From positions 32,001 through 96,000 of IMG/VR virus record IMGVR_UViG_3300027792_000013: 64,000 bases of DNA; one strand, given 5' to 3'. Of this stretch, positions 23,475 through 34,938 are shown piece by piece. Both the position numbers and the translations under genes were made by a program. The DNA is from a virus. The notes under the pieces were generated by a model that worked only from the letters and a program-made list of their open reading frames with translations, searched no databases and had not been told where the DNA came from. The stretch's first letter is position 1; the number at the start of each line of letters is the position of its first letter.

Positions 23475-26045
23475 TTAAAACATAGTTTTCAATGAAATTT
23501 TTTCGGGATTAAAAAATTTGTCATGAATTGTCCAACCACATACTTTTCCTAAGTTATCTAAAGGATGTAAAAACGTTTTTTCGAATTGAGTTTCATAATC
23601 TATAGATTGGTCTAAACCCAACTCGGGAGGTAGAATAGTTAAAAACGCTATTACATTTTCCCCAATTTTGTTTGGAGTTTTAAGATAAATAAATTTAATT
23701 TTGGTTTTTTCCTGAATTAATCTATATTTCCCCAATAGGTTTAATTTTTTAATCCAGTAATTATATAATAGAGATCCTCTGACATGAATGGGGGTTGCTT
23801 TGGCATAAATATTTACATCGTCTCCATATTTTTTTAATCCTTGAACAGATCTTGGAAATGCGATTTCATCTGGTTTCATTTTATCATATTCTTCCCAAAA
23901 CTTCTTTATGCCAGACATTATTTTTTCCTCTGATTTCAGAAAAATATCATTCACAATTTCCTTTAATTTTGTTCTGATGACCTGCGGGGTGGAAGATCTG
24001 ACAATTTCAATTCCGGTAACTTTTAATGTTGGGGGATCACAAATTATATCTTCGTCAATATATTTCTGAATAATATATTTCTTTTTGGCTACAAAAAGAC
24101 CTTTTCCAACAACCTCTTGTTTCATAACAAGAGATTTTTTATAGACATTCAATATCGAATAAATCTCTTCAATTGCTTTTTCAATATATTTCGACACTTT
24201 TTTGTCACCAAATTCTTTTACAAATTTAGCGATTTCAGTATCTGACAATCCCGGTGATAATTTATTTGTCAATTTTGAACAAGAAATATATTCGGAATCT
24301 GTATCACAATAAACAACATCGATATGATCCTTTAAATTAGCTTTCAAATATTCCTCAATAAACCGAACTACATATTGACCTGTACATGTAATAGCCGAAG
24401 CAATTCTAATATCAAAATATCTAAATTTTTCATTTGCAAATGCTCCGTATCCGCTATTTAATAGAATTTTCAAAGCCTGTTGTTTCAAATCCAGACTTTT
24501 ATATAGAGATGTTTTACTTTTTGCGGATTTCATTTTCTTTTTGGTTTCTACTCGATCATTGTAAATGGTCTCCATAATATCACCAAAAATAGACGATTGA
24601 TCTTTTCTATAAAATTGTAAATTTGCTGTCATTGTTAAATTCTTTTCTTGTAAAATTGAAGTATCAACTTTTCTGAAAATCAAATTGTCCAATATAGAAT
24701 TATCGTCTTTTTTTGTTTCATCATAAAAACAAGCTAAAGAATCTATTCCAGGATTGTTAGGAAAAATTTTTGAAATCAAATCTTTTCTTGTATCCTCATC
24801 TGTTATTAGAGTCTGAGGAGAGATATTGCAATCAATAATAACATTTGGATACTCAGAATTTACATCGTATGAAATTACCCAATCATGAAACCCAATTTGT
24901 GGTTCTCTGACATATCCACCGGGATATTCTTCCTTTCTTGAATCTTTTTTAAAAGGCGGAACTATAAGATTTCGTTTTTTCTGCTCATTGTAAACAATCA
25001 CGTCCCAGACCTTTACGGCTGAAAAAATATCACAAAAAAGAACTTTGGCAGTATAAGCAATTGTTGTAGCTAAATTCAATAACTGTAATTTTTCTTCCAA
25101 AAGATAAACTAATTCAACATCATAGATATTATATTCGACAAACTTTTGTTTGTCATTTAAATAGAATTCATCTAAAGAATCTTCGTCAAACTTAACTTTT
25201 TCTTTGTTAAGTTCGACTTGTGAAATATGCGATAATGAATATGATTCCCTTGTTGTTGGTACATACTTTTTGTATAGATCCAAATAGTCTAAAATAGGAA
25301 TATGAAAATCCCAATGAGACAATCGACTTCCATTCACAAAAGATTCAATGGGATTGACATGCCCAATAGGACTCAAATCGTTTAAAACATTTGATCCAAT
25401 TACTTTGCAAATCCGGTTGGTTAAATATGGGATATCAAAATATTGGACATTCCACCCGGTAATAATATCCGGAGACAAAGATTTTATGACGTGAATAAAT
25501 AACTCCAAAAGTTCCCTTTCAGTTGTGACTTGTTTGAATTGAATTTTTTCTTTATCTATGTCTAATTGACATTTTGAAGTTTCAAAGGGGCAAGTACTTA
25601 AAACAAAAAATGATTTCGTTATACTATCTTTTATAGTAATCGAAGTAACCGGATATAATGCATCCTGTGGTTCAGCAAAACCTTGACTATTTGAAAAAAC
25701 TTCGATATCAATATAAACAGTTTTGATAAAATCTAGATTCCAAAATACTGATTGTTCTTCTCCCCATCTTGAATTAATAAATTGATATACTGGCGAAATT
25801 TCCCCATATAATGGAACATCTAGTTGTTTTTGATCATTTTTAAAATTATGATATTCTTTGATCGATAAACTATGTTTTTTCAAAAATTTATTATCAGTCC
25901 CTATATATTCAGTGGGTATTTGTGCCAAAGTATAGATTTCCGGATAAAAAATAACATCTCGTTTAAATTTCTTACCGGTTTCATTGTAACCAATACAACA
26001 TAAACTGTTACCGTTTGAAATCACATTTGTGTAAAATTCTTTCAT
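23475..26045 (-). CDS. gp43: family B DNA polymerase
   Basis: Exo DIEV, GWNVQYFDIPY, YNIYD; pol DVNSEYP, KILLNSGYG, YCDTDS, KKKY, GIEIVRSSTP. Confidence 0.97.
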   Translation of the reverse strand: MKEFYTNVISNGNSLCCIGYNETGKKFKRDVIFYPEIYTLAQIPTEYIGTDNKFLKKHSLSIKEYHNFKNDQKQLDVPLYGEISPVYQFINSRWGEEQSVFWNLDFIKTVYIDIEVFSNSQGFAEPQDALYPVTSITIKDSITKSFFVLSTCPFETSKCQLDIDKEKIQFKQVTTERELLELFIHVIKSLSPDIITGWNVQYFDIPYLTNRICKVIGSNVLNDLSPIGHVNPIESFVNGSRLSHWDFHIPILDYLDLYKKYVPTTRESYSLSHISQVELNKEKVKFDEDSLDEFYLNDKQKFVEYNIYDVELVYLLEEKLQLLNLATTIAYTAKVLFCDIFSAVKVWDVIVYNEQKKRNLIVPPFKKDSRKEEYPGGYVREPQIGFHDWVISYDVNSEYPNVIIDCNISPQTLITDEDTRKDLISKIFPNNPGIDSLACFYDETKKDDNSILDNLIFRKVDTSILQEKNLTMTANLQFYRKDQSSIFGDIMETIYNDRVETKKKMKSAKSKTSLYKSLDLKQQALKILLNSGYGAFANEKFRYFDIRIASAITCTGQYVVRFIEEYLKANLKDHIDVVYCDTDSEYISCSKLTNKLSPGLSDTEIAKFVKEFGDKKVSKYIEKAIEEIYSILNVYKKSLVMKQEVVGKGLFVAKKKYIIQKYIDEDIICDPPTLKVTGIEIVRSSTPQVIRTKLKEIVNDIFLKSEEKIMSGIKKFWEEYDKMKPDEIAFPRSVQGLKKYGDDVNIYAKATPIHVRGSLLYNYWIKKLNLLGKYRLIQEKTKIKFIYLKTPNKIGENVIAFLTILPPELGLDQSIDYETQFEKTFLHPLDNLGKVCGWTIHDKFFNPEKISLKTMF

Positions 26046-27253
26046 TCAAATATTTCCTTTAGATCATGTTTAATTGTATCTTCTTCAAATTTGTTAAAAA
26101 CCATTCCACTTTTAATTAACTCGTCAAGTTTTTTTCCTTTTGGTAAATCAAATATTTTGTCAATTAATGTAAAAATAAAAATATCATTTCGAGGAAAAAT
26201 GTCTCTTATAATTTCTTTTGAATTCAAGAAAAGTATATTTTCTAACTCAGTTTTATCTTTTATAAAGTGATACAAATTATGCAAGGATAAAAAACTATAA
26301 AAACGTGTCGTAAATGCCTGATTTTTTTCGTTAAATTCTTGATATATATGTCGCCAAGTTAAACCTTCACAAACTGGACAATCACAAGGTAGTGGAATAT
26401 CTAAATTAAGATGGTCAATTGAATCTATCTGTTTTGTTATAGTTAATTTGCTCGATTTAAAAATAGAAGTTTTGTAAGACCCGAATGCCGATGATAATAT
26501 AGGTGATGATGAATCGTATGAAATTTTGCATTTATACCCTAATTGATTTAGTTTATGTTGAAAATAAATCAACATGCGCATAATTTGATATGATGTTGCT
26601 CCAAAAATATGAAAAATTTTTCCTTTGCTGTTAAATCTATCAAATTCCCCGGATTCTAAAAACATAATAAGAGCATACAAAGTTAAAAATATATTTCGTG
26701 ATACAGATCCAATCGCCCACCCACCACTAAAATTAAAATCCTTGACTTTCTGATACCACGTAATCAATTGATCGATGCTTCTTCCTTGTAAAACATTCAT
26801 AAATTTTGTTTTGTTACTTTGATGAGTTTCAAACCATTGAAAATTAGAAAATGACATTTCTAAACATTCTTCAAATGTTTTTCTTCTGTTTCCTTTACTA
26901 GATGATATAAATGGTGGTATATCCAAATTTGGAGAGTAATTGGTATTTTCTTCTAACCAATCAAATATTTTTTCTCTAATCTCATCAGAATATTCTAAGT
27001 AGTCCGTAGTTATTTGATATCCACCAGAATCTCCCATCACTAATGTTTTAGTTAAGTCAATTTTTAATATTTCCTTAACCAAATTTGGTTTTTTATAATT
27101 ATGTCCGGCCGAAAACATAATTTTGTCATAATGAAAAATAGAATTTTCTTTATTGAAAAATCGCATAGACTTTTCTTTTATTAATTTATCAGTAATCATT
27201 TCATCATATAAACATCCTGTCGATATTGCTGGAATATATAAAGTTCTATTCAT
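26042..27253 (-). CDS. dpdA: TGT-fold guanine transglycosylase, DpdA-like (7-deazaguanine insertion into DNA)
   Basis: MGDSGGYQI, LDIP, VLQG, GWAIG, HIFG, YDSSS, Zn site CDCPVC...LHN; coupled to gp43 and clustered with folE/queD/queE. Confidence 0.85.
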   Translation of the reverse strand: MNRTLYIPAISTGCLYDEMITDKLIKEKSMRFFNKENSIFHYDKIMFSAGHNYKKPNLVKEILKIDLTKTLVMGDSGGYQITTDYLEYSDEIREKIFDWLEENTNYSPNLDIPPFISSSKGNRRKTFEECLEMSFSNFQWFETHQSNKTKFMNVLQGRSIDQLITWYQKVKDFNFSGGWAIGSVSRNIFLTLYALIMFLESGEFDRFNSKGKIFHIFGATSYQIMRMLIYFQHKLNQLGYKCKISYDSSSPILSSAFGSYKTSIFKSSKLTITKQIDSIDHLNLDIPLPCDCPVCEGLTWRHIYQEFNEKNQAFTTRFYSFLSLHNLYHFIKDKTELENILFLNSKEIIRDIFPRNDIFIFTLIDKIFDLPKGKKLDELIKSGMVFNKFEEDTIKHDLKEIFE

Positions 27254-27276
27254 TTAATGACCTACCTTATTTAATT

Positions 27277-27303
27277 ATTATACCAAAAAACTTAAAAAAA
27301 CTT
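27277..27303 (-). promoter_or_regulatory. AAGTT-N16-TATAAT promoter for dpdA-gp43
   Basis: AAGTT, 16 nt, TATAAT. Confidence 0.65.
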
Positions 27304-27331
27304 TCTTTTTTTAGTAGAAAAATATATGTTT

Positions 27332-28351
27332 TCATATATACTCCTTGATTTTTTCAAACCCAACAAATTTATTAATCAATATTTGTCTTTGTATTTTTAA
27401 TAATTCATCCAATTTATTTTTATTCATTGAGTTAATTTGTTTGACAAAATGCAAAAACGTTTTAATTATTTCATTGTCGGATAAGAGATTCTCATATTTA
27501 AATTCTGATATATACATTTCTTCGTAAGACAATCGATTTGGAATAAATGGAACCACATCTAAAAATACTCCCTCAACAGCACTTATACCAAATGTTTCTT
27601 GAAGATTGGCACTAAATAAAAATTTACTACTCGTTAGTAATTTATAATAATCTTTTTTTGTTTTGCATTCTTCTAAACTAACAACAAAAGACATGTCTTT
27701 TATTTCATTTTTCATTCTCCTAAATAAGTCAATTCTTTTTTCCACTGATAGTCTATGTGGAAAAATTACCTGATTTTTCTTTAAATCACGATCCATTTTA
27801 TACTTATTTAAATAATCTATTTTGTATGGAAATCCAACTACTTTTATTTTGTCTTTATATGTATTCCCAAAATTATTTATGATCATTTTTTTATGAAAAT
27901 CAGTTGTAACAAAAGATATGTCGGAACAATCTAATAAACTTTTTTCAAATCCATTGAAATACTTATTTGCACCAACTAATCCTAATAAATCATATGGATC
28001 ATAACTTCCAGCATGCCAATAAGAATAGATTTTAATATTAATTCCACTTAAAAGTGACATATATTTTACTGCTATAATCCCATAATGCCAGGCATCATAA
28101 AACAAAAATTTATCATTTGGTTTAATTAATTTTTTATTGAATAAATCTGCCATTTTACTAATTTGTTCTGATTTCCACTTATTAGTATTAAAAATATCTA
28201 AAAAATTTTTGTTATTACTTATACCAGATCTAGTTTTTCCGTCTATTTCAATCGAGTCCGGAAATTCTTCTTTAAACCATACTTTCCACTGTTTTGTATA
28301 TCTTGTCTCTAATGGTTCCAATGTAACTAAATATAGCATATTAACCTCCAT
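27332..28351 (-). CDS. GT-B fold (GT4-like) glycosyltransferase
   Basis: FPHRLSVEKR, C-terminal E-x7-E motif QETFGISAVE, PNRLSYEEMY. Confidence 0.85.
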   Translation of the reverse strand: MEVNMLYLVTLEPLETRYTKQWKVWFKEEFPDSIEIDGKTRSGISNNKNFLDIFNTNKWKSEQISKMADLFNKKLIKPNDKFLFYDAWHYGIIAVKYMSLLSGINIKIYSYWHAGSYDPYDLLGLVGANKYFNGFEKSLLDCSDISFVTTDFHKKMIINNFGNTYKDKIKVVGFPYKIDYLNKYKMDRDLKKNQVIFPHRLSVEKRIDLFRRMKNEIKDMSFVVSLEECKTKKDYYKLLTSSKFLFSANLQETFGISAVEGVFLDVVPFIPNRLSYEEMYISEFKYENLLSDNEIIKTFLHFVKQINSMNKNKLDELLKIQRQILINKFVGFEKIKEYI

Positions 28352-28359
28352 AATCTATT

Positions 28360-29091
28360 TTAATATATATATTCAATATCTTTAATAGACCAACCATCTT
28401 TTTTTAAAGAAATTCCATAATTATTTACTTTTTTACTCCAAGCCAATTCAGATACCCACTTTTTTTCTGAATAACTATATCTAAGATGGTAAATACTATC
28501 ATTACAAAATATATAGTGAGGTTTTATTTTTTTATGTTTGAAAATTAAATCAGAAAAAACAAACCAATCTATTGTTTTTTTAGTATTTAATAATTTTTTT
28601 AAAATAACAGTATCTTCTATAAAAGTATCATATTTTTGTAAATAACAACATCCCAACATTGAAAGATAAATATCATCATTTACAAACATCGGTGCTTTTC
28701 TGATTCCTATATCAACTCTATTTTCTATAAATGACATATAGACTATGTTTTTATTTTCCACAAATTTTAAAATGTTTTGAATAACTTTTTCATTAAAAAT
28801 AAAATCATCGTCAAAAATAAAGTAGTTTTTACGATTTAAATTATTCATATATTTAAGCATGTAATAAGTAGTTTTATTTATATTGCCACCACCTAATCCT
28901 GAAAATATATTCCACTTTTTTATCATCAATACTTCGAGTAACTTTTTCTGAAACCCAGTTAAGTCATTTTCCCCATCTTTGATTACTAACAAATTACCAA
29001 CAGTATTAAATGTTGATAGTACTGTTAAAAAAGCAGTAAAACATTCATACCCAAGAGTTCTTACCACAATTGTAAAATTTTTTTCTTTCAT
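28360..29091 (-). CDS. putative GT-A fold glycosyltransferase
   Basis: N-terminal FTIVVRT beta strand, IKDG, FIFDDD (DXD), late YHL. Confidence 0.55.
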   Translation of the reverse strand: MKEKNFTIVVRTLGYECFTAFLTVLSTFNTVGNLLVIKDGENDLTGFQKKLLEVLMIKKWNIFSGLGGGNINKTTYYMLKYMNNLNRKNYFIFDDDFIFNEKVIQNILKFVENKNIVYMSFIENRVDIGIRKAPMFVNDDIYLSMLGCCYLQKYDTFIEDTVILKKLLNTKKTIDWFVFSDLIFKHKKIKPHYIFCNDSIYHLRYSYSEKKWVSELAWSKKVNNYGISLKKDGWSIKDIEYIY

Positions 29092-29097
29092 ATTTAT

Positions 29098-29727
29098 TTA
29101 CATAAAAAGATTAAACACTTTATCATTTTTAAACCATAATCTTTCACAAAAAAGATTGTTTTTATGTAAATAAAAATACAAGCTATTTATTAAAGAAATA
29201 TCAATCTGTGATTTATATAACATAACCAATCTTATTTTATCAAAAATATCTATATTAATAAATGCATGATTAAAATTATTATTTTTTAAAAAATCATTGG
29301 TTTTAAATTGTACATTATCGGCATATGGTAAATCCTCATAAAAAATTAATTTATCATCGGGTAATATATTTTTAAAAGTTTCAAAGCATATAACATGATC
29401 TATATGTTCTTCAATTGATAATGGCAAGAAAACGAAATCATACCAACATAAATTTATTTTAACATCTATGTTTATTTTTAATTTCGAACGTAACTTAGAA
29501 TCTAAAAAATTTAAGTGAATATAATTTGCATTTACATGTTTACAGAAACTTTTGTCTTCTTGTAATCTTGTATTATATGGATTTTCCGATTTTATATTTT
29601 CATTTAATAGATAATTACTTTTATTAAAAACCGTTAAAATAGTTTTTTTACCTATTATTCTTTGTATAGATCCACCAATAGAAAAAGCAATATCATCGAA
29701 ATGTGGTTGAACAAATAATATCTTCAT
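29098..29727 (-). CDS. PIG-L/LmbE family N-acetylhexosamine deacetylase
   Basis: PHFDD..FSIGG, R..ED, HIDH, FYEDLPY, YKSQ. Confidence 0.9.
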   Translation of the reverse strand: MKILFVQPHFDDIAFSIGGSIQRIIGKKTILTVFNKSNYLLNENIKSENPYNTRLQEDKSFCKHVNANYIHLNFLDSKLRSKLKINIDVKINLCWYDFVFLPLSIEEHIDHVICFETFKNILPDDKLIFYEDLPYADNVQFKTNDFLKNNNFNHAFINIDIFDKIRLVMLYKSQIDISLINSLYFYLHKNNLFCERLWFKNDKVFNLFM

Positions 29728-30194
29728 TTTTTGTAATCTACCATATATTTTTCCCAGTCATTATAACTAAAAGAATCTGAAATAAATATACCATCAATTG
29801 ATTCTATTTTTAAAGATACTTGATTTATATTACTCAAAGTCAGATTATTAGTTTTTAAAGTAAATATTTTATGAATGTAGTGATTTGATAATATATAAGC
29901 CGGTATCTTAAAAATTTCATCTATTTCATATTCAGCAACAATGATATATTTATTTACATCTATTGTTGATAAAAATTCAAATAATTCTTTATTGTCTATT
30001 TTTGATTGATTACATGCTCCAAAATAAATCCTTTTAATATCCACATCTTTTTCTAGTATATTTTTAATTTCATTTAGAGAAAAAGATCCTTTGACAAATA
30101 AAGTTTTGATTTTATCTTTTTCTATCCCTTCAACTTCTACCGATACAAAATAAGGTTTATCTAACATTTTTTTTCTCACTTTCACCATGATCAT
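29724..30194 (-). CDS. conserved phage hypothetical protein within the deazaguanine cluster
   Basis: VEVEG...KTLFV.G...IYFGA pattern; 4-nt overlap with the PIG-L gene. Confidence 0.6.
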   Translation of the reverse strand: MIMVKVRKKMLDKPYFVSVEVEGIEKDKIKTLFVKGSFSLNEIKNILEKDVDIKRIYFGACNQSKIDNKELFEFLSTIDVNKYIIVAEYEIDEIFKIPAYILSNHYIHKIFTLKTNNLTLSNINQVSLKIESIDGIFISDSFSYNDWEKYMVDYKK

Positions 30195-30873
30195 TGCTGT
30201 ATCCTAAACAAGTTTCACATTTTTTAATAATTCTATTTTCAATATTCGTTTCCCAAATATTCCCCAAAACACAATCACTACTATCATCAAAACACTCACA
30301 ACATCTTACTATTTTACCATTAGATAGTACTACCACCTCATTATTTACAAGAAAAGAACAATTTTTGAAATCACTCCTTTTCTCTGTATTATTTAATTGA
30401 CCCAGGTCCCGCAATCGTTTGGTAAAACATTTGAATCCATTATTTAAAAGATCTAGTATAATGTCTTTATATTTTTCTTCGTCAAAAAATAATATATTTA
30501 TTTTATCTTTGTCATTTTTTATTTCACTCAAATTTTTAATTGAGTTATAATTGTGAAAGGAAATGTATAATTTACTTAACCCCATTTTTATTAAAGACGA
30601 AAAATTACTATTAGTTAATAGAATTCCATTCGTATTTAATTCAACTTTTATTTTTTTATTATTTAATACTTTTATTGTATATAATAATATATCTAATTCC
30701 AAAAGACTTTCTCCAAAATGATGTAATCGTACTTTTTTCGATGTGATAATATTACATATATGGTCTATCACATCTTTATCAATTGTTTTAATAGGTCTTG
30801 TCATCGCACTTCTTGGGCAATAATAACAACTTAAGTTACATTTATTTGTTATTTCAATTTGATATATATTCAT
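30157..30873 (-). CDS. radical SAM enzyme with twitch/SPASM-like C-terminus
   Basis: IEITNKCNLSCYYCPR, LHHFGESLL, NTNG, CSFL...GKIVRCC...GNI...CETC. Confidence 0.9.
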   Translation of the reverse strand: MNIYQIEITNKCNLSCYYCPRSAMTRPIKTIDKDVIDHICNIITSKKVRLHHFGESLLELDILLYTIKVLNNKKIKVELNTNGILLTNSNFSSLIKMGLSKLYISFHNYNSIKNLSEIKNDKDKINILFFDEEKYKDIILDLLNNGFKCFTKRLRDLGQLNNTEKRSDFKNCSFLVNNEVVVLSNGKIVRCCECFDDSSDCVLGNIWETNIENRIIKKCETCLGYSNDHGESEKKNVR

Positions 30874-31254
30874 CTAATAATACTCTTTTAGTGATCCATT
30901 TTCATTATCTTCTGATATTTCAATTTTAATTTTTCTTTTAGGAAATTTGGTGGAAATTTTTTTATAAAAAAAATCAGATATTGCCTCACAAGATTTGTTA
31001 TTAAGATTCTTATTTTTTATTAAAGATTCTACGAAACTTTTGAATAAAAAGAACTCTATATCACGATCATTGTGGAAAACTTCTATCCATATTTTTACAT
31101 AAAAAATATGACGGTGGATATTTTTTAAAAATTTTACTTCTGGTGGGGCATCTGTATATCGATGAAACCCAACAAAATTAGTAGTAATCCATATAAAACT
31201 ATTCATTCTATTTCTTAATGTAATGTAAAAATTCTTCTTTTGTACTAATATCAA
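30874..31254 (-). CDS. dpdL: QueD-like T-fold protein, DpdL-like (CDG decarboxylase); likely start MNSFIW at 31206
   Basis: LKNIHRHIF matches LxxxHRHxF; HNDRDIEF; SCE; SEDNENG. Confidence 0.75.
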   Translation of the reverse strand: MILVQKKNFYITLRNRMNSFIWITTNFVGFHRYTDAPPEVKFLKNIHRHIFYVKIWIEVFHNDRDIEFFLFKSFVESLIKNKNLNNKSCEAISDFFYKKISTKFPKRKIKIEISEDNENGSLKEYY

Positions 31255-31822
31255 GAAAACAGCCTTTTAATGAAGTAGTTATCATCCAGGCATTCGGTTC
31301 TTGAATTCCTCTGATCTGCATGCAACCATGTTGAGCTTTAATATAAACTCCACATCCTACCGGTTGAAGTTTTTCATCAATGAACTCCGATATTTGTTCC
31401 GTTAATTCTTCTTGAATTTGTGGTCTTTTGGTAAACCAATCAACAATTCGAGCCAGCTTAGAAATGCCAGTAATTAGCTTATTGGGAATGTATCCTATAT
31501 AAGCCTCACCAACAAATGGGACAAAATGATGAGAACATAATGAATTTACGCGAATTGGACCCAAAACAATCATAGAGTTAATCTGTTTGGTATTGACGAA
31601 AAATGTTATCTTTGGAGACGGTTCATAACAGCCTTTTAAAAGTTCCCTAACATACATTTTGGCAATTCTTTTAGGGGTTTCGTTTAAATTTTGATCTAAA
31701 TTCATATCAAATCCCAAGATCTTTAAAATTGATATAAAATGAGTTTGTACTTCGTCTTCCATGATTTTCAATTCAGATTCCGTTTTTATCTTATTGTCAT
31801 TCGCAATTCCTAGTCCTGGCAT
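31208..31822 (-). CDS. folE: GTP cyclohydrolase I
   Basis: ETPKRIAKMY, SLCSHHFVPF, GISKLAR, RPQIQE, HGCM..RG. Confidence 0.96.
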   Translation of the reverse strand: MPGLGIANDNKIKTESELKIMEDEVQTHFISILKILGFDMNLDQNLNETPKRIAKMYVRELLKGCYEPSPKITFFVNTKQINSMIVLGPIRVNSLCSHHFVPFVGEAYIGYIPNKLITGISKLARIVDWFTKRPQIQEELTEQISEFIDEKLQPVGCGVYIKAQHGCMQIRGIQEPNAWMITTSLKGCFLDISTKEEFLHYIKK

Positions 31823-31881
31823 TTTTACTCCTTCTTTTAAATCAATTTATTGGTCTATTATAATATATTTCATATTTTTAC

Positions 31882-32490
31882 TTAATATAATCTGGCATGT
31901 AAATAAAACTTATCAGCTATATTTGTACTAAGATTCAAAATAACTAGTTTTGTTTCAAATATTAACGTCCAGTTATCAGGTAAATCAGTTCCAAATAATC
32001 CAGAAGATCCAAGAACAAAATTATGTTCTACATAATCTCCTTCACTAGTATTTTTTGGTTGAATTTGATTTATTACATGTTTTTTATCAACTAGTTGAAA
32101 TTCTTCATATCCAATAGAAGCTAGAAAATCTATAATCTCGCTTGAAATAGTTTCCACAGATAAAAATTTTGGTTTTTCTTTTAATTTTCTTAAACACTTA
32201 ATTATTTTAAAATCATAATCTTTAATACCAATTTTTAAATAATAAGGTAAACCATAATTAGTAAATAAATCTATTAGAGGAATACAATTTTTATCGGTTA
32301 TATCGATATTTAATAAACGCAATTGTTTATTACTAATATAACTTTGAAATTTATTTTCATCTTCATCTTCATCATGTTCTATATATTCCTTATTAACAAC
32401 GTTCATAGAAACAACGGTAAACCCCTTCTTTAAATAAAATTCTATATCTTGTTCATTACATCCGATGTCAAAAATTAAATTCTTTCGCAT
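31882..32490 (-). CDS. FkbM-family methyltransferase-like protein, degenerate
   Basis: IFDIG, FYLKKGF.VV, YG.PYYLKI, GSSGLFG.DLP..W; KIDIEG is replaced by KIGIKD. Confidence 0.65.
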   Translation of the reverse strand: MRKNLIFDIGCNEQDIEFYLKKGFTVVSMNVVNKEYIEHDEDEDENKFQSYISNKQLRLLNIDITDKNCIPLIDLFTNYGLPYYLKIGIKDYDFKIIKCLRKLKEKPKFLSVETISSEIIDFLASIGYEEFQLVDKKHVINQIQPKNTSEGDYVEHNFVLGSSGLFGTDLPDNWTLIFETKLVILNLSTNIADKFYLHARLY

Positions 32491-32506
32491 TTATTTTTCC
32501 TCCTTA

Positions 32507-32737
32507 TCACCTTTCAGAAACTTTAGCAAATTTAGCATATTCAGAAAATACAATATCAGTACCATAAAATTCGTTATGTTTATCAATAATTTTAAATATT
32601 CGATTTCCACAAGCTAAAAATGATTTGTTCTCTAAATTTTGACCAGCAAATATATCACTCGTTGGTAATTCTATCAATATATAAACCATTCTTTTGGTTG
32701 TAACTGAAATGTCCTTAGCATATATTATTTGTGTCAT
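32507..32737 (-). CDS. hypothetical protein
   Basis: 76-aa ORF in operon. Confidence 0.55.
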   Translation of the reverse strand: MTQIIYAKDISVTTKRMVYILIELPTSDIFAGQNLENKSFLACGNRIFKIIDKHNEFYGTDIVFSEYAKFAKVSER

Positions 32738-32746
32738 ACTATCTTT

Positions 32747-33490
32747 TTATACTCCTCTTTTATTGCCCCAAAGTAAAACATGAAGTCTTGGGGTAACCCT
32801 GAAATCTGTAGTAAATGCTTTTCTTAGATTGATTTCTTTTAAAACATCAATTAGAAATTTTAGATCTTCTACCATTTGAGTTTGTTCTGTACCCTTTGGC
32901 ATTAGATAGATGCAACATTGTTGTGGGTCCATCAAGTTCCAAAATTTCAACAAATTGTGAATTTTAACTAATTGTTTTGCAATTTTTTCAGGAATTTTTT
33001 CCTGAAGGTTTATAACAAACTTCAAATTAACCGTTTTAATATTAGATAGAGCCACAATATTGGTGAAACAATCTCCGATTTTCTTTATAAATTGTAATTT
33101 TGGAGAAATATTTAAAGTAATTTTTCTTTTATATAGAGGATATTCCATTCGATTAATAAATTCTGTTGGTATAATGGTCCCATTAGTTTCAATTTCAATA
33201 CCGAAGATATATGGTAATAAATAGATTCGATCAATAAACTCCATAAACCCTTGTTGAAGAAATGGTTCGCCCCCCGTAATAACTATATTACGACTACCAA
33301 ATTTTTCAATTTGCATTAGAATTTGCTCAATACTCATTTCCTGAAATTCTTTTGATTTTGACGCAAATTTTGAATCACAAAAATCACAAGAAAGATTACA
33401 GCCAGCGAATCGAATAAATGTTGACAAAACACCAATATTAGGTCCTTCACCTTGAATTCCAACAAAAATTTCACTGACCCACATTTTCAT
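32747..33490 (-). CDS. queE: 7-carboxy-7-deazaguanine synthase
   Basis: EIF.GIQGEG, FIRFAGCNLSCDFCD, TGGEP, ETNGT, ISPK, PRLH..LWG. Confidence 0.95.
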   Translation of the reverse strand: MKMWVSEIFVGIQGEGPNIGVLSTFIRFAGCNLSCDFCDSKFASKSKEFQEMSIEQILMQIEKFGSRNIVITGGEPFLQQGFMEFIDRIYLLPYIFGIEIETNGTIIPTEFINRMEYPLYKRKITLNISPKLQFIKKIGDCFTNIVALSNIKTVNLKFVINLQEKIPEKIAKQLVKIHNLLKFWNLMDPQQCCIYLMPKGTEQTQMVEDLKFLIDVLKEINLRKAFTTDFRVTPRLHVLLWGNKRGV

Positions 33491-33491
33491 T

Positions 33492-34001
33492 TTAGCCTTC
33501 TATGATAATCATATTGTTTTCGGTTTCTGAAAACTCTAATCGATACAACTCAATTGAATTATCTGATTTTATTGTTTCAATAATTTCTGGAATGATTTTT
33601 GAACTAATATGACGAAAAAATATTCGGCCTAAAATTTCAGAGGTTAGACTGTTTGATTCCAAAGGACTAAAGACGATAATCTTTTCTGGATAAATTGAAA
33701 ATTCTTTTTCTTTTTTAGTAACTACCGGTAAAGTTGGAAACATTTGATGTAAAATTGGATCTTCGGAAGATAAAAATAAAGCGTGATCAATAGTTTTAAA
33801 AAAGTCTTTAATGGGCTTCAAATCATTGAAATCTATAATCATTCCAACGTTATTCAAACTCCCACCTAAAAAAATAGATACTACTCCGCTGTGACCATGA
33901 AGATTTCTACACGCACATTCTATATTATAAGCGGTTTTTTTCTGATCATAGATTCGATGAGCATATTCAAATCTATATGTTTTTTTGATTGATGTAGTCA
34001 T
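33492..34001 (-). CDS. queD: 6-carboxy-5,6,7,8-tetrahydropterin synthase
   Basis: AHR, CRNLHGHS (CxxxHGH), GMIIDF, DHA, TSE, ETE. Confidence 0.9.
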   Translation of the reverse strand: MTTSIKKTYRFEYAHRIYDQKKTAYNIECACRNLHGHSGVVSIFLGGSLNNVGMIIDFNDLKPIKDFFKTIDHALFLSSEDPILHQMFPTLPVVTKKEKEFSIYPEKIIVFSPLESNSLTSEILGRIFFRHISSKIIPEIIETIKSDNSIELYRLEFSETENNMIIIEG

Positions 34002-34228
34002 TTCTTTACCTCGATTATTGCAACCCCACCCAGATAATTCAAAGCTACTAAATATTCATGGGATTTGTAGTTAAGAATATAAACATCAGCTGCTAGGTTA
34101 GTACTTCCCATTTCACATAGTTTCGAATATGAAACATCTTTTGTAATGTAATAGGTGTTTAACCCAAACAATAACCCAATCCCTAAAACACCAACCAAAC
34201 ACAAAATTATTGTTTTTTTACATTTCAT
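33998..34228 (-). CDS. small membrane-anchored hypothetical protein
   Basis: N-terminal hydrophobic helix; leaderless start 6 nt after TATAAT. Confidence 0.6.
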   Translation of the reverse strand: MKCKKTIILCLVGVLGIGLLFGLNTYYITKDVSYSKLCEMGSTNLAADVYILNYKSHEYLVALNYLGGVAIIEVKK

Positions 34229-34234
34229 ATCTAT

Positions 34235-34261
34235 ATTATATAATAGATTTGTAAAAAACTT
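34235..34261 (-). promoter_or_regulatory. AAGTT-N16-TATAAT promoter heading the queD-queE operon
   Basis: TAAAGTT, 16 nt, TATAAT. Confidence 0.7.
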
Positions 34262-34938
34262 TAGGATTGTGTAGGTTGAATATTTGTTGAAGTTGTTCTA
34301 AATTCTTGCTTGCAAAATTTTGATCTTTCAATTAGATCTATGTAACTGTAATTCAAATATCTTCCAGATTGCCCATTATTATACCAGAAATATGCTTTGG
34401 CTAAATCCCCATTTGCCTCTTTGAGATATCGCAAAAATATTTCTGCACCTAATTCAATATTGTACTCCACCTCAAAAATTCGATTGATGTCAATATCGAG
34501 TTCATCTTTCCAAACATTGTAGTTAACCTGAGATACACCATATGCAATAGGAAATCCGGAGGAATTTCTAGATACTGCCAGTGGATCAAAAACAGATTCA
34601 ATATGAAGTATTGGCAAAAAATTGTAGGGGTTCAATTTCTTTTTTTGGCATATATCATAGGTGTGTTTCAAAATAGAAGCAAATACTGGAAACCTAGCCT
34701 GGTAACCAAATTCAACAAACTTTAGAAACTCATAATCCCTAGTGTTTTTTTGATAGATTTCAAAATCCATTCGCAAATTTTTGTGTTCGTTTTTTGCGAA
34801 TTCATTAAATGTTTTCAAGGTTGTTTGATACTTTACATAATAAGCACCCGCGACATTTCCTAAAAACATTATAGATATAATCAAAACAAAGTTCAAAATA
34901 ATAGACATTCTCAACCATTGATTCTTTTTGTTTTTCAT
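34261..34938 (-). CDS. lytic transglycosylase (SLT domain) with N-terminal membrane anchor
   Basis: IESVFDPLAVS (catalytic E), AYGVSQV, NIELG, YNNG; hydrophobic residues about 12-33. Confidence 0.87.
   Translation of the reverse strand: MKNKKNQWLRMSIILNFVLIISIMFLGNVAGAYYVKYQTTLKTFNEFAKNEHKNLRMDFEIYQKNTRDYEFLKFVEFGYQARFPVFASILKHTYDICQKKKLNPYNFLPILHIESVFDPLAVSRNSSGFPIAYGVSQVNYNVWKDELDIDINRIFEVEYNIELGAEIFLRYLKEANGDLAKAYFWYNNGQSGRYLNYSYIDLIERSKFCKQEFRTTSTNIQPTQS

Follow-up and report, generated by a model that had tools for sequence, protein, structure and literature searches.

What would a phage do with sugar-modifying enzymes encoded in the middle of a pathway for 7-deazaguanine? This question is raised by a block of genes (26042-34001) in a stretch of viral DNA 64,000 nucleotides long, called the window here, taken from positions 32001-96000 of an IMG/VR virus record (IMGVR_UViG_3300027792_000013) that is 115.9 kb long and approximately 64% complete. 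An earlier reading made from the letters and open reading frames (ORFs), which we call the sequence-only reading, had proposed that the block is a 7-deazaguanine DNA-modification locus extended with two glycosyltransferases, a deacetylase, and an extra radical S-adenosylmethionine (SAM) enzyme. We found every gene that it listed where it had been placed, on the minus strand. Our analysis predicts with high confidence that the locus is a 7-deazaguanine DNA-modification module of the type that uses DpdL, apparently without QueC. We put at roughly 55% the probability that this module, formed by DpdA, an unassigned protein that we call c3, DpdL, and a GT4-type glycosyltransferase, and joined in this phage by enzymes that tailor a glycan, places a sugar on a deazaguanine base in DNA. 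The genes of the module and its precursor pathway are the following.

26042-27253, minus strand: DpdA-like transglycosylase with a TGT fold, 403 amino acids (aa); the stop codon overlaps the start of the DNA polymerase gene gp43 by 4 nt
27332-28351, minus strand: GT4-type (GT-B) glycosyltransferase, 339 aa, typed through its homologues
29724-30194, minus strand: c3, a divergent 156-aa member of a conserved family of about 175 aa
30874-31254, minus strand: DpdL-like T-fold protein, 126 aa, predicted 7-carboxy-7-deazaguanine (CDG) decarboxylase, motif LKNIHRHIF
31208-31822, minus strand: FolE, GTP cyclohydrolase I (PF01227, E 9.4e-54)
32747-33490, minus strand: QueE, 7-carboxy-7-deazaguanine synthase, a radical SAM enzyme (Radical_SAM, E 1e-14)
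33492-34001, minus strand: QueD, 6-carboxytetrahydropterin synthase (PF01242 (PTPS), E 1.7e-18; TIGR03367, E 2e-13)

FolE, QueD, and QueE together make CDG from GTP. The calls of folE, queD, and queE in the sequence-only reading were upheld by hidden Markov model (HMM) searches. QueD contains the signature CxxxHGH in the form CRNLHGH. The match of QueE to TIGR03963 (E 1.4e-29) is under the cut-off of that model, QueE models were its top three NCBIfam matches, and a family HMM built from related loci matched it at E 8e-36. DpdL is defined by the motif LxxxHRHxF, which replaces the CxxxHGH of QueD-like T-fold proteins (PMC10516641), and the LKNIHRHIF of the window protein satisfies this definition. 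Searches with tblastn linked the window protein to the DpdL genes of the cultured phages ACP17 (gp125, E 2e-13) and phiST (CGPG_00067, E 7e-7), and the DpdL family HMM matched both genes. Motif and homology thus agree with the earlier call of a DpdL-like QueD paralog. The homologues begin aligning at residue 17, and the true start of the window gene is likely to be the ATG at 31206. No match to PF06508, the QueC family, was found in the 115.9-kb record, itself approximately 64% complete; the sequence-only reading had noted the lack of queC for the window.

The transglycosylase gene had been recognized from the sequence as TGT-fold and DpdA-like with an overlap of gp43; its coordinates confirm the 4-nt overlap. 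Matches of the protein sequence to TGT were weak (Pfam E 0.0038; TgtA 3e-5), the family profile had no match in the PDB, and just one of the 34 family members touched the Pfam TGT family. Since sequence searches gave so little, the TGT fold had to come from structure. An AlphaFold model built with 34 homologues (pLDDT 81.5, pTM 0.85) was matched by Foldseek to archaeal, bacterial, and human TGT with a probability of 1.00 (E 4e-10). Within the family (n=34), DSGG(F/Y)Q, D111, G157, H215, G218, and D247 are invariant, which includes both catalytic Asp positions (D75 in DSGGYQ, and D247), and Q156 is kept in 32 members. Judged by motif, they would be the counterparts of the residues with which TGT binds the base and carries out catalysis. 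The window protein also contains a zinc motif, CDCPVC. This CxCxxC motif is kept only in a short subclade of approximately 400-436 aa (the window, L002, L003, and L012); in a larger clade of approximately 500-540 aa the cysteines are lost and the His is retained. The family takes in ACP17 gp123 and EST35_0316 of phage PA5oct. Alignment of this family with DpdA3 of phiST (CGPG_00065) by hhalign gave a probability of 67.7% (E 4.9e-5, 181 columns), and neither tblastn nor HMM searches matched the two. As judged from these comparisons, the family appears to be distinct from the short DpdA3 of phiST. A single-protein scan of IMG/VR with the window DpdA gave no close relatives.

A TGT fold by itself cannot separate a DNA substrate from a tRNA substrate. 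We weighed whether the enzyme acts on tRNA or whether the locus makes a soluble glycosylated deazapurine like the antibiotic huimycin, whose gene cluster also combines homologues of FolE, QueD, and QueE with a glycosyltransferase and a methyltransferase (PMC7439116). Four observations speak for DNA instead. The DpdA gene is translationally coupled to that of the DNA polymerase, members of its family occur in replication modules, published phage TGT homologues that occur together with que genes act on DNA (PMC10516641), and the DNA of PA5oct is resistant to restriction at G (PMC12191111). We consider a tRNA substrate or a soluble product very unlikely.

Is the sugar part of this system? The sequence-only reading treated both glycosyltransferases as extensions of the locus. 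For the GT-B enzyme the family assignment stands, but its status as an extension does not. Among the 569 homologues of the protein many contain PF00534 (Glycos_transf_1), and in this family both glutamates of the EX7E motif (E248 and E256) are invariant, as are H109, R196, and K201. Because of PF00534 and the invariant EX7E motif, the family looks catalytically active. A pattern scan of IMG/VR gave at least 597 loci with GT4, DpdL, and DpdA, from which 83 were fetched for counting. Alongside the GT4 gene, 81 of the 83 encode DpdL, 74 a member of the DpdA family, 63 FolE, and 51 QueE. The usual order is gp43 followed at some distance by DpdA, the c3 protein of about 175 aa, DpdL, a small basic ORF, and GT4, and GT4 adjoins DpdL more tightly than it does the other module genes. 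The trio of GT4, DpdL, and DpdA is present in cultured phages from lineages that are not related to one another, namely PA5oct and its relatives, ACP17, the Sinorhizobium phage Phosso, the Xanthomonas phages BUDD and X1, the Burkholderia phage BCSR5, and the Synechococcus phage BUCT-ZZ01. In bacterial genomes (for example, Pelagibacterium, Devosia, Magnetospirillum, and Sulfitobacter) GT4 adjoins DpdA in 35 of 40 loci. GT4 belongs to the core of the module, alongside DpdL and DpdA, and is no add-on. In the neighborhood comparison that had been suggested earlier, dpdL and this glycosyltransferase co-occur (81/83), and PIG-L is absent (0/83).

These counts bear on a second alternative, in which the DNA has plain 7-deazaguanine or CDG and the sugar enzymes and methyltransferase merely share an early-gene block while serving the nucleotide-sugar pool, a glycan of the host envelope, a protein of the virion, or the like. 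Such an arrangement would leave unexplained why GT4 lies next to DpdL and DpdA in over 120 loci, which come from bacterial genomes and from phages of unrelated lineages, and why the BtrN-like enzyme described below recurs exactly there. No membrane or secretion features were evident when the enzyme translations were inspected by eye, without a prediction tool. The alternative draws its force from the PIG-L, GT2-like, and methyltransferase genes, which this phage alone has and which sit in AT-rich DNA, and from phiST and the Vibrio phage VP1, which make plain 2'-deoxy-7-deazaguanosine (dDG). We regard it as unlikely, at about one chance in several.

The neighborhoods of GT4 in the related loci also contain a pair of Gfo/Idh/MocA and alcohol dehydrogenase-like genes, a second GT4, an epimerase/dehydratase, a UDP-glucose dehydrogenase-like protein, a short-chain dehydrogenase/reductase (SDR), and an FAD oxidoreductase. 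Across loci L006-L083 a phosphoribosyltransferase (58/83; e.g. L060:12039-12596) and a HIT-domain protein (36/83) are frequent, and neither is encoded in the 115.9-kb record of the window. One idea is that they salvage guanine freed by DpdA or serve a deazapurine route at the nucleotide level. Two further conserved small basic proteins that are not in the window are one of about 85 aa (51 loci, median isoelectric point (pI) 9.8; e.g. L083:9738-9995) and one of about 156 aa (40 loci, median pI 9.5; e.g. L024:7140-7610). The median pI of the GT4 family itself, 5.6, equals that of the background and of the polymerase and is silent on DNA binding. A predicted complex of DpdA and GT4 scored 0.00, which speaks neither for nor against binding. 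In the bacterial contigs (L086-L125), which also include isolate genomes of Ochrobactrum and Methylobacterium, the GT4-DpdA pairs often have no DpdL or FolE nearby; they may be prophages that rely on deazaguanine precursors of the host.

The protein encoded at 29724-30194 had been described as a conserved unknown between dpdL and dpdA. It is conserved, but it is not an extension of the locus, since its family is part of the core and occurs in 65 of the 83 loci. The c3 family HMM, built from 65 members, matched the window protein at E 1.8e-8, and in the family alignment this protein keeps F16, E20, E22, T31, F33, G59, K129, and G135. ACP17 gp122 is a member. The family corresponds to no Pfam family and has no relative in the PDB. 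The AlphaFold model of the window protein was weak (pLDDT 66, falling under 50 at the C-terminus), nothing matched it in Foldseek at E <= 0.001, and the best VIA-align Z score, 6.7, was inside the range of noise. CGPG_00066 of phiST was considered as a c3 homologue and rejected.

If the sugar is on the base, to what is it attached? The sequence-only reading saw a puzzle in that plain 7-deazaguanine offers no obvious handle for a sugar. Precedent suggests an answer. Huimycin and the dapiramicins have a 7-deazaguanine core whose 2-amino group bears an N-linked sugar, and in huimycin the sugar is N-acetylglucosamine (GlcNAc) added by HuiG (PMC7439116). We found no thymidylate-synthase-like hydroxymethylase in the record, so that there is no obvious pyrimidine acceptor, and glycosylation of the 5-hydroxymethylcytosine (5hmC) or hydroxymethyluracil type was set aside for this reason. 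PA5oct, whose DNA has a modified G, resists restriction enzymes with G-containing sites and is targeted by END nucleases that sense G modification (PMC12191111). As PA5oct carries the GT4/DpdL/DpdA trio together with G-modified DNA, we count it in favor of a glycosylated deazaguanine.

The order of the steps is a separate matter. The DNA of phiST was measured to contain dDG (PMC10516641), and phiST encodes DpdL without GT4. The base can therefore be made with no GT4, which should act after it. The opposite order, in which a sugar is added to free deazaguanine or a nucleotide in the manner of HuiG and the product is then incorporated by DpdA or a polymerase, fits with the tight adjacency of GT4 to DpdL, the free-base enzyme, with the free 7-deazapurine that is the substrate of HuiG (PMC7439116), and with the phosphoribosyltransferase in 58 of the 83 related loci. 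That enzyme, however, is missing from the record of the window, and the DpdA family keeps Asp and Gly residues without exception, and a Gln in 32 of 34 members, which at the level of motifs match the readers of the guanine face in TGT; this argues for an unsubstituted base as its substrate. We judge addition before insertion to be improbable and favor the transfer of a sugar onto deazaguanine already in DNA.

Four further enzymes encoded within the block could elaborate such a sugar.

28360-29091, minus strand: glycosyltransferase with a GT-A fold, GT2-like, 243 aa, a near-orphan assigned by an Atlas structure search
29098-29727, minus strand: PIG-L/LmbE-family N-acetylhexosamine deacetylase (PF02585, E 4.1e-9; score 37.5 bits, gathering cut-off 28.2)
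30157-30873, minus strand: radical SAM enzyme resembling BtrN, with an auxiliary-cluster domain of the twitch type (PF04055, E 1.2e-11)
31882-32490, minus strand: FkbM-like SAM methyltransferase, 202 aa, assigned by an Atlas structural match

The radical SAM enzyme has the CxxxCxxC core as CNLSCYYC and conserves C172, C191, C192, C219, and C222. Its family has 11 relatives, some with PF13186, and when the family profile was compared with solved structures the best match was BtrN (E 5.5e-18, 68.7 bits; next best 9e-7), aligned in two segments that cover the core and the twitch. The window enzyme is thus BtrN-like by sequence, its best solved relative being BtrN, and is predicted to oxidize a secondary alcohol of a sugar or cyclitol. 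The analogy to butirosin drawn earlier therefore holds at the level of sequence, twitch included. A single-protein scan of IMG/VR gave no close relatives, and an alignment-based scan then gave two loci. In one (L127) the order is DpdL, radical SAM, a protein of 144 aa, GT4, and QueE; in the other (L126), from a 224-kb phage, it is FAD oxidoreductase, SDR, second GT4, radical SAM, DpdL, and GT4. A more distant radical SAM/SPASM gene lies between DpdL and GT4 in L003. The BtrN-like enzyme thus recurs with the module as an optional accessory. Upstream of the tailoring block of L126, two DpdA-family paralogues flank QueE (L126:1125-5186).

The PIG-L deacetylase called earlier scored above the Pfam gathering cut-off and keeps the metal-binding HxDD and HxxH motifs as PHFDD and HIDH. 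Among solved structures, diacetylchitobiose deacetylase comes nearest to it (E 1e-3), and a single-protein scan of IMG/VR gave no close relatives. The probable GT-A enzyme was supported by Atlas matches to Glycos_transf_2 (PF00535) clusters (TM 0.66-0.74 over 201-222 residues) and by a DxD motif, FDDDF; only six distant relatives were found among 1.84 billion representatives. The sequence-only reading omitted the FkbM-like gene at 31882-32490 as well as a 76-aa ORF at 32507-32737. The FkbM-like protein has no Pfam match and contains the N-terminal motif LIFDIGCN. Its Atlas model (pTM 0.85) matched FkbM/Methyltransf_21 clusters with a TM of 0.89 over 197 residues, a score at the level of a lead, and its product looks like an FkbM-type methyltransferase. 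None of the PIG-L, GT2-like, radical SAM, and FkbM-like genes occurs in the 83 related loci. What this phage has added on its own is thus the PIG-L, GT2-like, and FkbM-like set.

Several points weigh against a sugar on the base. The absence of PIG-L, the GT2-like enzyme, and the methyltransferase from the 83 loci means that their position is what links them to the pathway. The stretch with the PIG-L, GT2-like, and c3 genes (28001-30000) has a GC content of 0.22 compared to approximately 0.29 for the window, which fits a later insertion of genes there, and a recent insertion, as would be expected from such AT-richness, need not be functionally integrated. The window GT4 and GT2-like proteins have no direct match in Pfam. 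GT4 may act on the free base, on a nucleotide, or on a target other than the base. Finally, the decarboxylation of CDG to 7-deazaguanine by DpdL is a prediction that has not been reconstituted in vitro (PMC10516641).

With these points taken into account, a glycosylated deazaguanine in DNA could arise as follows. FolE, QueD, and QueE would turn GTP into CDG, and DpdL would remove the carboxyl group to give 7-deazaguanine. As its family and context suggest, the TGT-fold DpdA would then swap guanine in the phage DNA for 7-deazaguanine. GT4 would move a sugar from a host nucleotide sugar onto the deazaguanine, most likely on the DNA after insertion, and the exocyclic 2-amino group is a plausible site, as in huimycin. 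Family chemistry suggests what could follow. The sugar is probably an N-acetylhexosamine (HexNAc), which PIG-L would deacetylate to a free amine; the GT2-like enzyme may add a second sugar, the BtrN-like enzyme may oxidize a sugar hydroxyl, and the FkbM-like enzyme may donate a methyl group. That all four of these enzymes act on one glycan is possible but somewhat doubtful. We likewise only tentatively propose that the virion contains 7-deazaguanine with a tailored amino-sugar glycan, that is, a deacetylated HexNAc extended by a second sugar, with the glycan then oxidized, methylated, or both. The benefit to the phage is likely to be that its DNA is shielded from restriction and other nucleases.

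How does this proposal compare with known systems? In the biosynthesis of butirosin and neomycin, BtrM is a GT4 enzyme that uses UDP-GlcNAc, BtrD is a PIG-L-type deacetylase, and BtrN is a twitch radical SAM dehydrogenase. The same three enzyme families are together in the window, and BtrN is the closest solved relative. The acceptor proposed here, by contrast, is not an aminocyclitol, the block has no aminotransferase, and the match to BtrN, at 68.7 bits, does not establish orthology. A parallel for the base is huimycin, with its FolE, QueD, and QueE homologues, glycosyltransferase (HuiG), and methyltransferase (HuiC). By contrast, huimycin is a small-molecule antibiotic made from preQ0 that needs QueC and involves no transglycosylase, and HuiG is likened to GT4 by chemistry only.

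Among phages, the Cellulophaga phage phiST has the same precursor genes, with FolE, QueD, QueE, DpdL, and DpdA3 (Hutinet, Cui et al. 2023, PMC10516641). It resembles the window in its DpdL with LxxxHRHxF and a TGT-fold transglycosylase beside replication genes, and it lacks QueC, to which the incomplete record of the window also gave no match. It differs in having no GT4, c3, or tailoring enzymes and in its DpdA3, which is 259 aa long and has DNGA instead of DSGG. PA5oct (EST35_0316-0318) and ACP17 (gp122-gp125) have homologous DpdA, GT4, and DpdL in the same adjacency, with c3 in ACP17, but both are without the PIG-L, GT2-like, BtrN-like, and FkbM-like genes, and PA5oct has an epimerase-like protein and a phosphoribosyltransferase instead. 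Glycosylation of 5hmC is carried out by the alpha- and beta-glucosyltransferases of T4 and by clusters of several glycosyltransferases that build mono-, di-, and trisaccharides of hexose, HexNAc, and heptose (bioRxiv 10.1101/2023.12.21.572611). Those systems share with the window the use of phage GT-A and GT-B enzymes, sugar-nucleotide helpers, and stepwise growth of a glycan on a base. Their acceptor, however, is the hydroxyl of a hydroxymethyl pyrimidine, whereas the pathway of the window makes a deazapurine, and no deacetylase or radical SAM step has been reported for the clusters (bioRxiv 10.1101/2023.12.21.572611).

Two other features complete the setting of the block.

23475-26045, minus strand: family B DNA polymerase gp43, given for context (PF00136, E 1.5e-29; PF03104, E 3.7e-17)
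32507-32737, minus strand: ORF of 76 aa with no assigned function, whose membership of the system is uncertain

The phage is T4-like, with a family B polymerase that is 38% identical to cyanomyovirus polymerases and a UvsX/RecA-like gene near the block. All genes of the block are on the minus strand and overlap or are spaced by no more than 78 bp. No cultured phage matched the 8-kb block in a megablast search. A scan for terminators in the block detected none, which fits a single transcription block and is otherwise uninformative, and promoter-like sites were not enriched (62 compared to 68 in shuffles). The 76-aa ORF had no match in Pfam, PHROGs, or the related loci. In gp43 (24288-24870), motif A reads DVNSEYP and motif C reads YCDTDSEY. 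The Glu in these motifs takes a place that in family B polymerases is usually hydrophobic, and it may be an adaptation to a modified template. Directly upstream of queD (33998-34938) are genes for another 76-aa protein, with an N-terminal hydrophobic segment, and for a lytic transglycosylase with an SLT domain (PF01464, E 7.7e-11). Both are probably unrelated to the modification genes.

A full-text literature search found no description of a glycosylated deazaguanine in DNA. The DNA glycosylation that it did find is on hydroxymethyl pyrimidines or 5-hydroxycytosine, and the 7-deazaguanines described by Hutinet et al. 2023 carry only small groups (PMC10516641). A sugar on a deazapurine, if true, would therefore be a new class of DNA base and, as far as we found in the literature, the first base of purine type known to be glycosylated in any DNA. 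The contribution of the window lies in its set of PIG-L, GT2-like, BtrN-like, and FkbM-like enzymes, the link to BtrN by sequence, the assignment of the 156-aa protein to the c3 family, and the precedent of huimycin; this phage would show how far the glycan can be elaborated. A simpler monosaccharide form would be expected in hundreds of phages, including PA5oct and ACP17, and phages already in culture would allow a direct test. Expression of DpdL and DpdA alone in E. coli gave no dDG (PMC10516641), and an involvement of GT4 and c3 may account for this result. If true, the proposal would assign a role to two conserved components found in hundreds of phages, a glycosyltransferase and an unassigned protein family, and it would bear on how such phages evade restriction and CRISPR, on defenses that depend on modification, such as END nucleases and Dag glycosylases, and on the sequencing of their genomes.

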